Below are positions 2,198-50,126 of a stretch of DNA of 64,000 bases, one piece after another (position 1 is the first letter of the stretch; the number at the start of each line of letters is the position of its first letter). Origin of the DNA: Eledone cirrhosa (Eukaryota). Where the stretch lies: the NCBI GenBank assembly GCA_964016885.1, contig OZ024746.1:66464001-66528000 (forward strand). Reading direction: 5' to 3'. Under the pieces are notes generated by a model. The model saw only the letters and a list, made by a program, of their open reading frames with translations. It searched no databases and was not told the DNA's origin. A program made the translations under genes and the position numbers.

Positions 2198-5100
2198 ATT
2201 GATCAAAAGAACATCTATTTTATTAATATTTATATTTTAATATTAATAACTCCGAAAAATTTTTTTTTTATCGTAGAGTGCTTCCAATCCACTGTAAAAC
2301 TCATTCTTTGACATACTCATTGAATATTGTTTAACACTTTAATATATATATATATATATATATATATATATATATATGTGTGTGTGTGTGTCTGTGTGTG
2401 TGTGTGTGTGTGCGTATGTGTGTGTGTGTGTATGTGTGTGTGTGTGTGTGTGTGTGTGTGTGTGTGTGTGTGTGTGTGTGTGTGTGTGTGTGTGTGTGTG
2501 TGTGTGGGGGGGTGAGTACGTATGTATATGTAGAAATATCCGAAGGCGTAATAAAGAAATAAGGAAAATATTGTCCAATGGGAAAGAGTGCTGATATATT
2601 CTTTTATTTATTTATGTCCAAACAAGGAACAGAAGTACTACATAATGTTTCAAAGCCTAATATTTACCATACTTCCAGAATGGAGGAGGGATCAACAGTT
2701 TGAACTAATCTGCAGACGATTTTACAAGTTTATAAGATACCGTTAAACAGGCCACACGAATAGCATATTACGATAGAATATTTAACTGCATATATGTGGC
2801 TGTTGGAAATGTCTATGTATGAACGATAAAAACATTTACCTGCATTAGTCTTTAATATAAAGGAAAATGGGGTTCGAACTAGATACTCTTCTGTTAGTAT
2901 TTATAGTATTTATAGTATGGACAGGCTAGGATCGACTGGATTTGTACTTAATTCTGTCCTTAAAACCACTATCTAGGGCGGGTTGGTTTAAGTGACAGCC
3001 TCATAGAAAATACTCCTGGTTGCTGATAGATTTGGGATCATACAACAAATACGACTAAGTTTTTTAAAGAAAACAGATGGGGGATGAAGTTTTATTAATA
3101 TATTTCAATTATATAGGGTGGCTATTGAAAAACTTGTTCGTTTTCAATCTTTTTTTTTTTTTGTAGAATATAGCGCATCCCTTTTTCTTTTTCACACTTA
3201 ATACTGAAAAAAAATTCATTATTTATATTTCCAAATAAATAAAAAAAAATCCGTGTGTTTGTAAAAGTTATTTTTGTTTTATATTATTCAGTCTTTCAGG
3301 GGGCACTATATACATATATATATACATATGTGTGAGTGTGAGTGTGTGTGTATGTGTATATATATATATATATATATGTGTGTGTGTGTGTGTGTGTGTG
3401 TGTGTGTGTGTGTGTGTGTGTGTGTGTGTGTATATATATATAAATATATATGTGTGTAATGTTTTCTTTATTTCAACGTAATTCTCATATTTCATTTCAT
3501 GTTTATGCAATGTATAGGGAGTGGCAGCCACATTTTATCTGACGCCCATACCATCGACGTTTTAAGACCGTTTGTTCTTTTCATCATCTACTTAATATTT
3601 GCTATCTATATTGTTTTGTCTTTCTTTTATTGTTCGAAACTATATTCTGTTGATCGAAATTCGTGTGTCTGTTATTTAGAGCCTGTTCCCTGGAATTATG
3701 CCAGAAGACGTAATGACCCTTTGTTACGATTATATTAGGGTTTGTATTTTATTTCAAACTTTTTTTATGTGTATTATACGTACTCCTCTCACCACTCCTC
3801 TTCAATTGTGTATCTACCAATTGTTATGTTGAACATAATCAAATATCGGGGAGTTGGTCTACTTTACAACCAATCGTATAAGACAGTAGATTGGCAAAGT
3901 TTAGTGCCTCACGTTAAAACATTACAACTTTTGGTACGGCTGTATGTATTCAGTGTTCAAATACTGCATTCATAATTTCGCAGTGTTTTCGTTAAGTAAA
4001 CTACCAATATAAACCGATACATTGGCAGTATCGCTAAATCATCTGATATAATACATTATGGTAGCCGTGCCGGTTAGATGAAATCCCGATATCCTAAATA
4101 TTCACTGGGGTACACTGTATAATCTGACCTCCAAAAGGTAAAACGAGAAAAAAAAACTCCTTACGTGTGCAATTTCATAGGACGACTTCTAAACTTCTGC
4201 AGCACTGAAAGATAACAATAAACAAAACTAAAATATATATGTGTATAGAGCTATGTTGGAGTGTACACCTTAATTCTATTTCTTGTTCAGGCCGAGCCAG
4301 CCTAAATGCAAATGAAGCAAATTAGTTGTTGGTGAAAATCTGATACACAGAAACTTTTCTAATTCTTGCCTTTTATATAATTTCTTTCTTTCATTTGAAT
4401 CATAACTTACAATAGGCTTACATGTTAAAATTTCAAGCATCAGCCAATATATCAATGGTGACATTTTGATTAACCCGAGGCAATGACGCTGCATAATTAT
4501 TGGACAGAAGAAAATGCTGCATTATAAATACTATCATAATCTCAATGATAGCTTAATTTTAGAGCCCTTCACGTATTTTAAATATATATATTTTTGCAAG
4601 TTTATTTGAATTATAGGGATGTTGAGGAGTGAACAATAGCTCTTTTAGCATATTGTAAAGAAATAATAGTACTGTCAATTCCTAAATAATATTTCGCTTA
4701 ATAACCAGAATATATAAACTTAGAATTAATGACCCTGATAAAATATGTAAGTAGGTAAATAGTTAGCAGCGTTATCGATTATAACTGGCTTTTCATCAAA
4801 TATATCCTGTTGAAATCTACAATCACGAATGTGAGCGATCTTATCTTTAAGCAACGCTGAAGATACCTGTAGTTATGTCTCACCACCTGCTCGCTTGGTT
4901 TCTCATACCGATAATGTTAACACAATGCCTTGGAGAATAGCAGGCACTTCTCACTGAATATGAGTATTCAGAGCAATCATTAATTCAATTTGCTTGTGGT
5001 TACAAAAGATGTATTTTATTAGGTTTTGTCACTATTAGCAATAAGAGGTCTTGCTTAGAATTGTTTCTTAACTTCTTAAATGCAAGATTTTGTGAACATT

Positions 5101-5314
5101 GTCTTGTTTAACAGAGCCATCGCATTGTCTGTAATAGTAAGTTTTCTCAAAGTTTGAATACTGTTAGATAATACATTAAACGAAAATAAACACACACAAA
5201 ACATACACACATATCCACACACACCCACACTCACAAACACGCAGACAGACAAAGACACACACACACACACACACACACACACATATATATATATATATAT
5301 ATATATATATATAT

Positions 5315-5499
5315 AAAACAAAGAGGGTGTGGCAAGATACCGGGTGGACCGTAACGTACCAGAGTACTCAATACTTAGTGTAGTAGAATGGGTAATAGGA
5401 AAGAGTCAGGACCCCGACGGCTGAGCTCCGGACGTTTCAACAGCTAGATCAAGCTGTCGAAACCACCGGAGCTCAGCCGTTGGAGTCCTGACTCTTTTG
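5315..5499 (-). mobile_element. Fold-back PLE-like 3' fragment (family also at 14488-14668 and 45198-45330)
   Basis: Hairpin AAGAGTCAGGACCCCGACGGCTGAGCTCCGG / CCGGAGCTCAGCCGTTGGAGTCCTGACTCTT centred on an HHR-like stemII-GAAAcgTC half. Tail contains ATTGAGTAC. Flanked by (TA)n on both sides. Confidence 0.65.
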
Positions 5500-48084: not shown

Positions 48085-49361
48085 CTGCAGAAGCGAATTA
48101 TAAAGAGAGGCAAAAAACACATACACATACGCACACACATGGATACAAGTTATAATTTCTCCTCACTACTCTTCCTTTCTCCATCGTTAGCCACCAGCAC
48201 ACAGAACGTCAAGCTCTGACTTTATCAATGGTCATAATTATTTCGTGGAATCCAGTTTCAAATTTGGTTGGAGTTATCGACATCTCAACGCCACTCGCGC
48301 AGTTTTGAGTGAGTTTACATGTGTATACACGCAAAGATAGACTATTTCCACAGCTGTCATATTCACACGTTGGCCATTACTCAGATCACACATATATGAA
48401 TACATCCAAGCTACCACATTCACGCACACGCACACGCATTGTTTTAATTCAAGCATAAAAACAGTACTGACAAAGAAGCATACGTGTCACTCAGAATTCC
48501 TGACTGTCACGTATGTATTCTTACATATTAAATTTACATCGCAAAATCGTTTTGGAATAAAATATATTAAGTTACGTTGAAGTACGAAAATATTTCATTT
48601 TTAAAATTGCATTTACATGGACATTTTAGAAATACAGTTTTTTTAGGAATAGGAATCTCTATTGTAAATTCTGAATCCCTGCCTAACAAAGCTATTTTAT
48701 TAATTCGTCTTTCTTATTGAGTAATTGGTGCTTGAAACATATCGGATGAAATTATTTATACACACGTACATCCCTTTACTGACATACATACACTTTTGTA
48801 CAACAAACAAACCACCACATATAATCAAGCATACACACATAACCCAATACATAAATATGTGTATGTATATGGGAATGCCTGTGTATGATTGTACGTGAAT
48901 AAATATAAATATATTTTAATACGTAGGCATTTACATATAAACGTTGTTTTGCTCTGAAAAAATATATAATTCTACATTAAAAATTAATATCCACGTGAGT
49001 AGAATAATGGGATTATTCTGATTATCTAGTTTTCTGTGTGTAAATGTAAGTGTGTATATACATGTATATGTGGGTGAGTGCATACTTGTGAGTTTTCATA
49101 AGTATTATGATGGACTGCATATAAATATGTATACATCGTCTTGGTACGTTATAAACAAAGCGTGCGTTATTAGGATTCAAGATTGTTCTTTAAGTAAAGC
49201 TTTAAATTGGTTGTAATATATATTTCATTGTTTTGTGCTATTTATCAAAGAACTAATAATGACTGTATAATTTAGCGCATATATATTTATGTAAATAAAT
49301 AGATCAATATTTCATTTTGTAATATGCTCATCCATGTATATTCGGATACATTTCATATACG

Positions 49362-49630
49362 TCTCTCTCTCTCTCTCTCTCTCTCTCTCTCTCTCTCTCT
49401 CTCTCTCTATCTATCTCTACCTCTCTCTCTCTCTCACTCTCTTTCTCTATCTCTCTCTCTCTCTCTTTCTCTCTCCCTCTCTCTCTCCGTTTCTCTCTCT
49501 ATATCTATATAACTATCTCTCTCTCTATATATATATATCACTTTTTCTGTCTCTCTCTCTCTCTATATATATAGAGAGAAAGAGATAGAGATAGAGAGAA
49601 AGAGAGATAGAGAGGGGGGAGAGAGAGATG
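49362..49630. repeat. (CT)n/(GA)n microsatellite
   Basis: Directly visible. Confidence 0.95.
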
Positions 49631-50126
49631 GGGATAAAATCCCGTCCGCGGTGACAAGTGATTTCACCTTGTTTGTTCAGAGTTCAGATGAAAAGAAAAG
49701 GATAGATAGTGTTATCTTGGAAGTAGATATTAGCGCCTATATTTAGCATCTATCATTCGTGTGACCGAAGGGATCCACCGAGTTTGCTGAAGAAGACCTT
49801 TCAATACATCAGTGATGCTCGTGTTGGATATATAGACAGAGAGACAGACACACACACACACACATATATATATATATATATATATATATATATATATATA
49901 TATATATATATATTTATATATATATATATATATATATATATATATATATATAGAGAGAGAGAGAGAGAGAGAGAGAGAGATTTTGAGTTTATGTTGGTTG
50001 TATACCAACACCTCAGTATGCAGGCTGGAGCACTCGACGAGGTGCACAGGTTGGTTTGGTTACTCCGGAGTAGTGTAAAATAAAGTTAAATAAAAGTCAA
50101 ATGATTAAAATTTAGCTTCGTTTATT

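Follow-up and report, generated by a model that had tools for sequence, protein, structure and literature searches.

What determines the two ends of a Penelope-like element (PLE) insertion, and the tail that is carried at only one of them, is the question raised by the 64,000-nt window of Eledone cirrhosa DNA analyzed here (GCA_964016885.1, OZ024746.1:66,464,001-66,528,000, forward strand), and it is the question which a short motif recurring along this window appears to address. An earlier note had described the motif at 12 sites, each of which does contain the words reported for it, and four additional copies were identified in the present analysis. The observation was thereby partly confirmed and its first interpretation partly supported: the motif itself was borne out, while its inner stem, its 2-nt bulge, its second copy, and its fixed distance to the upstream end had been overlooked. 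Enrichment was evident in 1.064 Mb of unselected DNA, in which 73 of 1263 (TA)n junctions carried the structured motif; 20 dinucleotide shuffles gave 4 to 10 apiece, and the antisense strand gave 22. No description of the motif was found in the literature searched.

The families 2249, 5364/14594/45242, 11911/34158, 40537, 44460, and 50028 could be linked to a Hydra-type open reading frame (ORF). The first of these continues into a second motif copy (copy 2) and a Hydra ORF at loci L224, L225, and L228; its member in the window is a first copy (copy 1; 2249..2281, +) which reads ACTC-CGA..TCG-TA-GAGT-GC and opens the tail, with a putative type I hammerhead core on its 5' side (2149..2179, +) and an inverted partner whose core (2042-2072, -) and tail-less end (near 1982) were likewise located by scan. 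A decayed copy with a tail cut short (44462..44487, -) is kin of this family. The 14594 family, linked through L186, includes an entire 178-nt fold-back insertion (14488..14665) with a tail-less end at 14488 (-) and a tailed end at 14665 (+), in which copy 1 (ACTC-TAC..GTA-TT-GAGT-AC; 14594..14619, +) begins 8 nt past the end of the inverted arm. Two newly recognized sites belong to the same family, namely, a copy 1 that contains U.G (ATTC/GAGT; 5364..5389, -) and a mutated copy with CAGT for GAGT (45242..45267, -). Copy 1 at 11914..11935 (-), with its hammerhead core at 11999..12039 (-) and its ORF linkage via L189 and L212, lies in the tailed arm of a fold-back whose other arm ends without a tail at 12299 (+); its relative at 34160..34181 (-) is also a copy 1, with a core at 34247-34288 (-). 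The same arrangement recurs at 40537..40563 (+; linked via L185), where copy 1 occupies the tailed fold-back arm, with a hammerhead at 40432-40478, and the other arm is tail-less at 40192 (-), and at 50030..50071 (-; linked via L190 and L213), where a long-looped copy 1 and a hammerhead (50140-50176, -) are partnered by a tail-less end at 50973 (+).

For the families 13996, 15101, 37384, 37786, 44091, and 44674, no Hydra ORF was found beside the copies examined. The copy at 13996..14033 (+) has a decayed inner stem, of which the CGT/ACG arms are intact in sisters L095 and L234; that at 15103..15127 (-) is of the G-C form, with a 5-bp inner stem which includes a G.U pair; and that at 37384..37412 (-), new to this analysis, reads ACTC-TAAG..CTTA-TT-GAGT-GC. 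A further G-C form with an atypical 3' flank, GAGC-TA (37786..37820, -), is accompanied by a hammerhead at 37884-37915 (-) and a tail-less partner ending at 39362 (+), and copy 1 at 44677..44697 (-) by a hammerhead at 44741-44763 (-). Copy 1 at 44091..44117 (+), also of the G-C form, lies 187 nt past the cleavage site of the hammerhead at 43838-43885, and its sisters end approximately 11 nt 5' of this copy and 6 nt 5' of a second one. The end geometry of the 44091, 44674, and 37786 families is the same as that of the ORF-linked ones. Elsewhere in the window, the distance from cleavage site to motif is 27 to 61 nt, near the distances previously given, while the supposition that a whole hammerhead core precedes every copy failed, as the scan found none for 13996, 14594, 15101, and 44460.

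The families had been taken to be unrelated, a view contradicted by the finding that every family linkable to an ORF belongs to the Hydra clade; the families of the window appear to be related. As defined in the portions of Craig et al. (2021; PMC8557442) that describe the clade, Hydra elements are C-terminal EN+ PLEs with an RWK motif, DKT in place of DKG, a CxCX5C linker, a C-terminal GIY-YIG domain without CCHH, a single ORF of approximately 710 amino acids, a hammerhead located within the pseudo-LTR, and (TA)n targets. The ORFs of loci L158, L168, and L175, which encode 719 amino acids and read MRWKA, DKT, and CSCRIKSEC, fit this definition, as do the single ORF, the pseudo-LTR type I hammerhead (read from the sequence), and the (TA)n targets, and 20 of 30 two-copy loci showed a downstream match to the L158 protein. 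Placement was by a quick tree, in which 2 of 56 loci had no row. Arginines R35, R37, R488, and R490 were conserved in 97-100% of 87 protein rows, and the monomer was modelled with confidence (pLDDT 92.5), its best structural match being TERT; the model did not place the RNA.

Full-length elements carry two copies of the motif between the hammerhead and the start codon, and it is relative to these copies that the ends are organized. Of 66 unselected ends, 65 fall at one of the two copies and 53 sit 5-9 nt 5' of a copy, a window that would be hit by chance at 2.7% per end; tail-less ends precede copy 1, and tailed ends precede copy 2. The end point coincides with a UA-rich patch which matches the (TA)n target and stops approximately 3 nt short of the stem: TAT or ATA was present at positions -9..-3 in 68 of 86 instances versus 914 of 4378 background 7-mers, and the gap remaining after the TA microhomology was 2-5 nt in 70 of 103 ends, with a mode of 3. 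A second cis-element besides the ribozyme, as the earlier note had suggested, is strongly supported, but with its geometry reversed, the constant distance being to the upstream end. The proposed fixed spacing of 45-70 nt to the downstream junction can be ruled out, since that distance ranges from 46 to 92 nt over true copies and is 20 nt at 44460. Among fold-back insertions, 26 of 28 paired a short (tail-less) with a long (tailed) end and none paired short with short or long with long, an outcome with a probability of 9e-9 if the two ends were independent.

The motif was resolved as a bulged hairpin, RCUC-Y..loop..R-UH-GAGY-RCU, with a 2-nt bulge. Pairs were counted by sequence-anchored scripts, MAFFT having misplaced the left arm when 73 motif instances were aligned. 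When the anchors were chosen from sequence alone, the first inner pair was Watson-Crick in 90 of 106 instances at a bulge of 2 nt and in just 5, 6, and 13 at bulges of 0, 1, and 3 nt, respectively, a register which disposes of the plain 4-bp stem. This pair was C-G in 52 and T-A in 36 of 105 instances (89 paired in all, against a shuffle maximum of 64), and its covariation is stronger than that of the A-T/G-C swap pair on which attention had initially centered. The swap itself is real, matching in 39 of 44 sequence clusters, but it represents few independent events, as all 17 Hydra rows of this genome form one group, outside which 86 of 107 instances have G-C at this pair and none has A-T. Loop length is tolerated from a few to tens of nucleotides, which suits a single strand. 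The bulge begins with U in 83 of 86 instances, its second base being free, and a conserved ACUNU lies 3' of the GAGY side; the downstream ACU was rejected as a pairing partner for the upstream flank, there being no matching letters. Free-hairpin folding was weak (z of -1.9 to +0.7 for 13 window copies), and for several window copies the bulged fold was not the lowest state. An Rfam scan returned none at the gathering score among the matches listed (150 of 158), nearly all of which were microsatellite-driven miRNA models.

The layout resembles that of the arginine sandwich motif of HIV-1 TAR and 7SK, in which A22-U40, U23, G26-C39, A27-U38, and G28-C37 participate (PMC6189040). Here, too, a paired purine and a bulged U are followed by G-C, A-U, and G-C pairs, and the bulged base is a pyrimidine as in TAR. 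Unlike TAR, the arrangement is circularly permuted, in that it is the purine side which the loop closes, with the GAGY side left open and followed by the conserved ACUNU. In TAR, the next pair is C29-G36. The likeness is one of layout, with no common descent claimed, and both the base triple and arginine binding are putative in the present case.

External Hydra-like loci, those of other animals, were picked by protein alone, and the motif was present in 55 of 65 of their 5' flanks and, among flanks that follow a hammerhead, in 32 of 51, compared with 4 and 2, respectively, in antisense and 0-3 of 116 in shuffles. As CTC and GAG served as anchors of the pair count, their constancy rests on the 55 of 65 protein-picked loci. 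Two copies spaced 59-83 nt apart occurred in 37 loci, and 18 of 25 external homology ends fell at a copy, with a gap mode of 3; these counts overstate independence, because many external loci are near-relatives or derive from one assembly. Among six published Hydra consensi, the canonical motif was recognized by eye in three, Hydra-2_Amil (coral), Hydra-1_Ajap, and Hydra-2_Ajap (both sea cucumber), with two copies in Hydra-1_Ajap, while the copepod consensus Hydra-1_Crog holds a variant in which the TAR-like core is broken. The sections of Craig et al. (PMC8557442) consulted do not mention the motif and give a tail of 30-40 nt, versus approximately 60-105 nt here by copy spacing.

It is proposed that the motif represents a putative protein-binding RNA element which positions two internal reverse transcriptase (RT) starts and thereby creates the PLE tail, an interpretation that we consider probable. 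RT binding or template positioning, one of the functions originally suggested, is thus retained as the best reading, with the motif placed relative to the upstream rather than the downstream end. The partner of the hairpin is likely to be the element's own RT-endonuclease protein, acting on RNA. The 3' end of the nicked (TA)n target would pair with the UA patch, and the RT would copy toward the 5' end of the RNA, moving off from the hairpin to which it is held. Synthesis begun at copy 2 would include the tail together with copy 1, that begun at copy 1 would yield a tail-less end, and priming of both target strands, one per copy, would generate a fold-back with a one-sided tail. The U bulge may, with less assurance, form a TAR-type base triple and take an arginine of the protein. 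Copy 2 would lie behind the element only in tandem, read-through, or circular RNA, which would explain the need of PLEs for more-than-unit templates. If correct, this would be the first defined RT-recognition element, by the literature searched, for the retroelement group that is sister to telomerase. A more elaborate version, which we advance tentatively, is programmed twin priming, whereby two RT protomers on two TAR-like hairpins of one RNA, each approximately 3 nt behind a UA primer patch, would prime both strands of the cut (TA)n target; in that event, both the PLE tail and the fold-back insertions would result from the doubled hairpin, which would amount to a portable signal of approximately 30 nt, able to give a telomerase-related RT an internal start on any RNA.

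LINE RTs and the R2 3' UTR offer a precedent, in that 3' stem-loops recruit their own RT; those stem-loops form part of the sequence that is copied and precede a start at the RNA 3' end. The present hairpin is similarly a structured cis-element near an element end which putatively recruits its own RT; unlike those stem-loops, it is situated 3' of an internal start, is left out of the copy made from that start, and is doubled. The closest biochemical parallel is PAc, the Anolis Poseidon PLE (Frangieh et al. 2024; PMC11167929), for which two internal RT starts bound an optional tail, both target strands undergo cleavage and extension, and the RNA that lies 3' of the main start (+111-118) is required as far as +172, the binding motif having been narrowed down only to the first 172 nt of the ORF. 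PAc shares with this system two tail-bounding starts (deduced here from genomic ends) and, putatively, a need for downstream RNA and the use of both strands. Its starts, however, are found in an AC-rich stem-loop which has no homology with the cut DNA, and the start site is reportedly no different between strands, in contrast to the microhomology and strict short-plus-long pairing found here; the PAc tail fragment in Fig. S1 of that study is without this motif. That work found the two starts and not their signal, for which the motif provides a short, pan-animal candidate with exact geometry.

The motif might instead be read in DNA, as duplex or cDNA hairpin, by the GIY-YIG endonuclease, which would cut the TA patch just 5' and so trim or home to its own end repeat. 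The patch does look like the (TA)n target, and the endonuclease of Drosophila virilis Penelope required the tail for plasmid recognition and cleavage (as cited in the portion of PMC11167929 consulted). GAGYRCTC is also nearly palindromic, but its last C is kept in only 44 of 86 instances, which rules out the palindrome as the conserved unit, and arms that lie 6-47 nt apart in external loci fit a duplex site poorly. The covariation of the inner stem at a fixed bulge register and an excess of G.U over A.C in the sense strand, albeit thin (6 versus 1 inside helices, 22 versus 14 over inner pairs 1-4), point to RNA instead. Furthermore, the product at tailed ends does not contain copy 2, which must, therefore, act on the template side, and reading in DNA appears unlikely.

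A mixed model, in which copy 2 on RNA would start the first strand, the cDNA would fold back, and copy 1, read on new DNA or on an RNA:DNA hybrid, would set the second end, draws on the strict short-plus-long pairing, which implies an order, and on regular differences between the copies. The first inner pair is C-G at copy 2 in 37 of 37 loci and mostly T-A at copy 1 (T-A in 26, C-G in 11), so that part of the covariation reflects copy type, and the closing pair in this genome is A-U for copy 1 and G-C for copy 2. End-to-stem spacing and core are nevertheless alike at both copies, and the Poseidon enzyme initiates in vitro at both starts on RNA (PMC11167929), making such a division of labor quite unlikely. 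Least probable is that the hairpins bind protein for RNP assembly or translation control, the ends being fixed solely by UA patches in the vicinity or by the ribozyme: in 50 of 55 external loci the last copy does begin 34-71 nt 5' of the ORF, and two Neptune-type families have discrete ends without the motif, but AT-rich repeats offer many other UA patches at which ends do not accumulate, and hammerhead-to-motif distance varies while end-to-motif distance does not.

The motif is no general feature of PLE tails: it belongs to the Hydra clade and is lacking from the two Neptune-type families examined, being present in 0 of 12 copies of one (L094) and replaced in the other (L022) by a different hairpin without a GAG arm. 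Six words from the 3' half gave nine matches in the Naiad and Chlamys consensi, coding-like and interior by eye, although line breaks may hide others. Hammerhead families 1, 4, 8, 12, 13, and 15 were without the motif, and a search for their clade found none. Single-protein scans of viral and metagenome contigs yielded no relative, whereas an alignment query did; a lone viral match (L342), weak and partial, was excluded. Within the window, the last of the four additional copies, a more decayed one, was spotted by eye near 13640 (-). Genome-wide, pattern matches, with overlapping ones counted, numbered 102,369 in the forward direction versus 9,247 for the reversed control, and the motif marks Hydra-clade fragments in genomes, some 100,000 of them here by the forward-strand pattern count.

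The bulged hairpin RCUC-Y..loop..R-UH-GAGY-RCU is genuine and conserved in Hydra-clade Penelope-like elements (PLEs), where it forms a cis-element that seems not to have been described before. Full-length members carry two copies (copy 1 and copy 2), and the motif is precisely placed with respect to each of the two element ends. Its occurrence was assessed in the 3.0-Gb source genome and in the window (33% GC, rich in (TA)n runs), with 1 Mb of unselected DNA (L055-L154) and loci fetched by protein and by pattern in addition. All 12 motif sites listed in the earlier note were recovered at their reported positions, and the structured motif was present at 73 of 1263 (TA)n junctions in the window and sample, as against 4 to 10 in 20 shuffles and 22 in antisense, a real enrichment. 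Genome-wide, the forward pattern returned 102,369 matches versus 9,247 for the reversed pattern, overlapping matches, which inflate the reverse-strand count, being included. The claimed fixed distance to the downstream junction did not hold, the actual range being 46 to 92 nt.

One motif-bearing family continues into an open reading frame (ORF) in which RWK, DKT and CxCX5C mark the Hydra clade. Used as a search pattern, two successive copies yielded 2609 matches versus 584 in the control, and a Hydra-type ORF lay downstream in 20 of 30 fetched two-copy loci, including four window families; two further window families were linked to such an ORF, and no Hydra-ORF link was found for six window copies. 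A quick tree with 36 external rows placed all 17 Hydra rows from this genome in a single group (SH-aLRT 99), and the motif families are, therefore, kin and not, as had been supposed, unrelated hammerhead families. The motif was absent from all 12 copies of one Neptune-type family (a label derived from comparison of DKG, GxKF-like and CX5CxxC motifs with the accessible part of PMC8557442), a second Neptune-type family carries a different hairpin, and several unassigned hammerhead families also lack the motif.

The element is ordered hammerhead, short end (tail-less), copy 1, tail, long end (tailed), copy 2 and start codon. Against eight two-copy references, 99 of 103 junctions, in a set that includes pattern-selected loci, fell 0 to 15 nt before a copy (83 at 5 to 9 nt), and the gap after the TA microhomology was 2 to 5 nt in 70 of the 103 (mode, 3). 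With unselected DNA only and 10 references, 65 of 66 ends lay at a copy and 53 at 5 to 9 nt, the chance expectation being 2.7% per end. Of the 25 homology ends in Hydra-like loci from other animals (external loci), 18 lay at a copy; judged by eye, five of the remaining seven resemble breakpoints between families that have diverged, and the last two terminate close to the hammerhead. No mapped window copy extends into copy 2. Short and long ends were combined in 26 of 28 fold-back insertions, the other two pairing a long with an unassigned end, and none joined like to like. The loop of copy 2 reaches about 55 nt in L100:3369-3530 and about 30 nt in L242, while the core stays intact. A pseudo-LTR piece that includes the motif is tandemly repeated in short arrays (about 183 and 150 bp; L253-L257 and L246-L251). 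Circular templates for tandem PLEs were suggested earlier (PMC4209133, available portion).

Within the hairpin, RCUC and GAGY enclose an inner stem, with a 2-nt bulge just before GAG. When external instances were anchored on sequence alone, inner pair 1 was Watson-Crick in 90 of 106 at a bulge of 2 nt, versus 5, 6 and 13 at bulges of 0, 1 and 3 nt. In 2000 partner shuffles, the observed pairing of inner pairs 1, 2 and 3 (89/105, 60/97 and 44/67) exceeded the shuffle maxima (64, 41 and 31), and inner pair 4 stayed within the shuffle range (25/54; maximum, 26). The first bulge base is U in 83 of 86 instances, and ACUNU follows on the 3' side; by eye, the bulge is a single nucleotide in one family, and in another the third core pair is swapped to A-U. 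The A-T/G-C swap put forward as covariation of the closing pair is present (A-T 23, G-C 16, G.T 3 and A.C 2 in 44 sequence clusters of this genome), but it reflects few events, since the families are kin. Left to fold freely, the hairpins are weak (z from -1.9 to +0.7); this is compatible with an element stabilised by protein but lends that idea no support in itself.

Judging from geometry and conservation, the motif probably acts as a signal, of which RNA-hairpin binding coupled with UA-patch priming is the simplest account. The PLE protein would bind the hairpin in its RNA form, the UA patch, some 3 nt upstream of the stem, would pair with the nicked end of the (TA)n target, and synthesis would proceed away from the hairpin; the two hairpin copies would provide two starts, thus giving rise to the PLE tail, and use of one start per target strand would produce a fold-back insertion. 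A mixed RNA/DNA model and, as a rival to RNA binding, action of the motif at the DNA level are less probable alternatives. The proposed RNA-based mechanism agrees with the biochemistry of Poseidon, another PLE clade, in the accessible text of PMC11167929, where two starts bound the tail, both strands are extended and RNA 3' of the main start is required; microhomology and strict end pairing, however, set Hydra-type ends apart. In Fig. S1 of that source, read by eye in PDF text order, the word GAAAG occurs twice in the tail fragment of PAc (Poseidon of Anolis), at a spacing of about 34 nt that is close to the PAc tail length, and Poseidon may possess a doubled signal of its own. The motif core has the arginine sandwich layout of TAR and 7SK, circularly permuted (PMC6189040, in the part available), and near-invariant arginines occur in the RMRW and RxRxIIW segments of the PLE protein; a link between the two is a lead only. 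No description of the motif was found in the accessible literature, and subscription papers, Repbase notes or figure images could mention it.

Of 1196 Hydra-like proteins, 87 were aligned, and this query retrieved 77 metagenome and 21 genome-collection contigs, which we infer to be animal host DNA. Of the 65 usable 5' flanks, 55 held the motif, as did 32 of the 51 flanks that follow a hammerhead, compared with 4 and 2 in antisense and 0 to 3 of 116 in shuffles; near-identical loci were kept separate, and one mis-cut flank (L312) was scored as a miss. In 37 loci there are two copies, with a spacing of 59 to 83 nt. Among six published Hydra consensi in the accessible part of the PMC8557442 supplement, three showed the motif by eye, a fourth a variant and two nothing clear. 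Hydra-like PLEs within bacterial genome assemblies from animal hosts (L343-L363) are probably host contamination.

A Neptune-type PLE (window 32813-33187(-), 31559-31688(-) and 33567-33696(+); L022) has a 410-aa ORF overlapping a 775-aa RT-EN ORF; it displays two discrete ends and no canonical hammerhead core, and its own hairpin, GTGT-AGG-ACAC, lies 3' of the short end. Retrozyme-like tandem 310-bp hammerhead repeats (L124:8749-9990, L227:2295-4200) possess a tail of about 35 nt that bears a conserved GCTATTTCAGAGCAC word directly 3' of the short end; the corresponding pattern gave 756 matches versus 0 in the control, and the word may be distantly related to the motif. Elsewhere in the window, a 459-aa frame at 62430-63809(-), from open-frame reading, presumably resembles the C-terminal half of a LINE-type RT, and related fragments at 17564-18666 and 55812-56204 (both +) resemble, by appearance, a DNA-transposon ORF.
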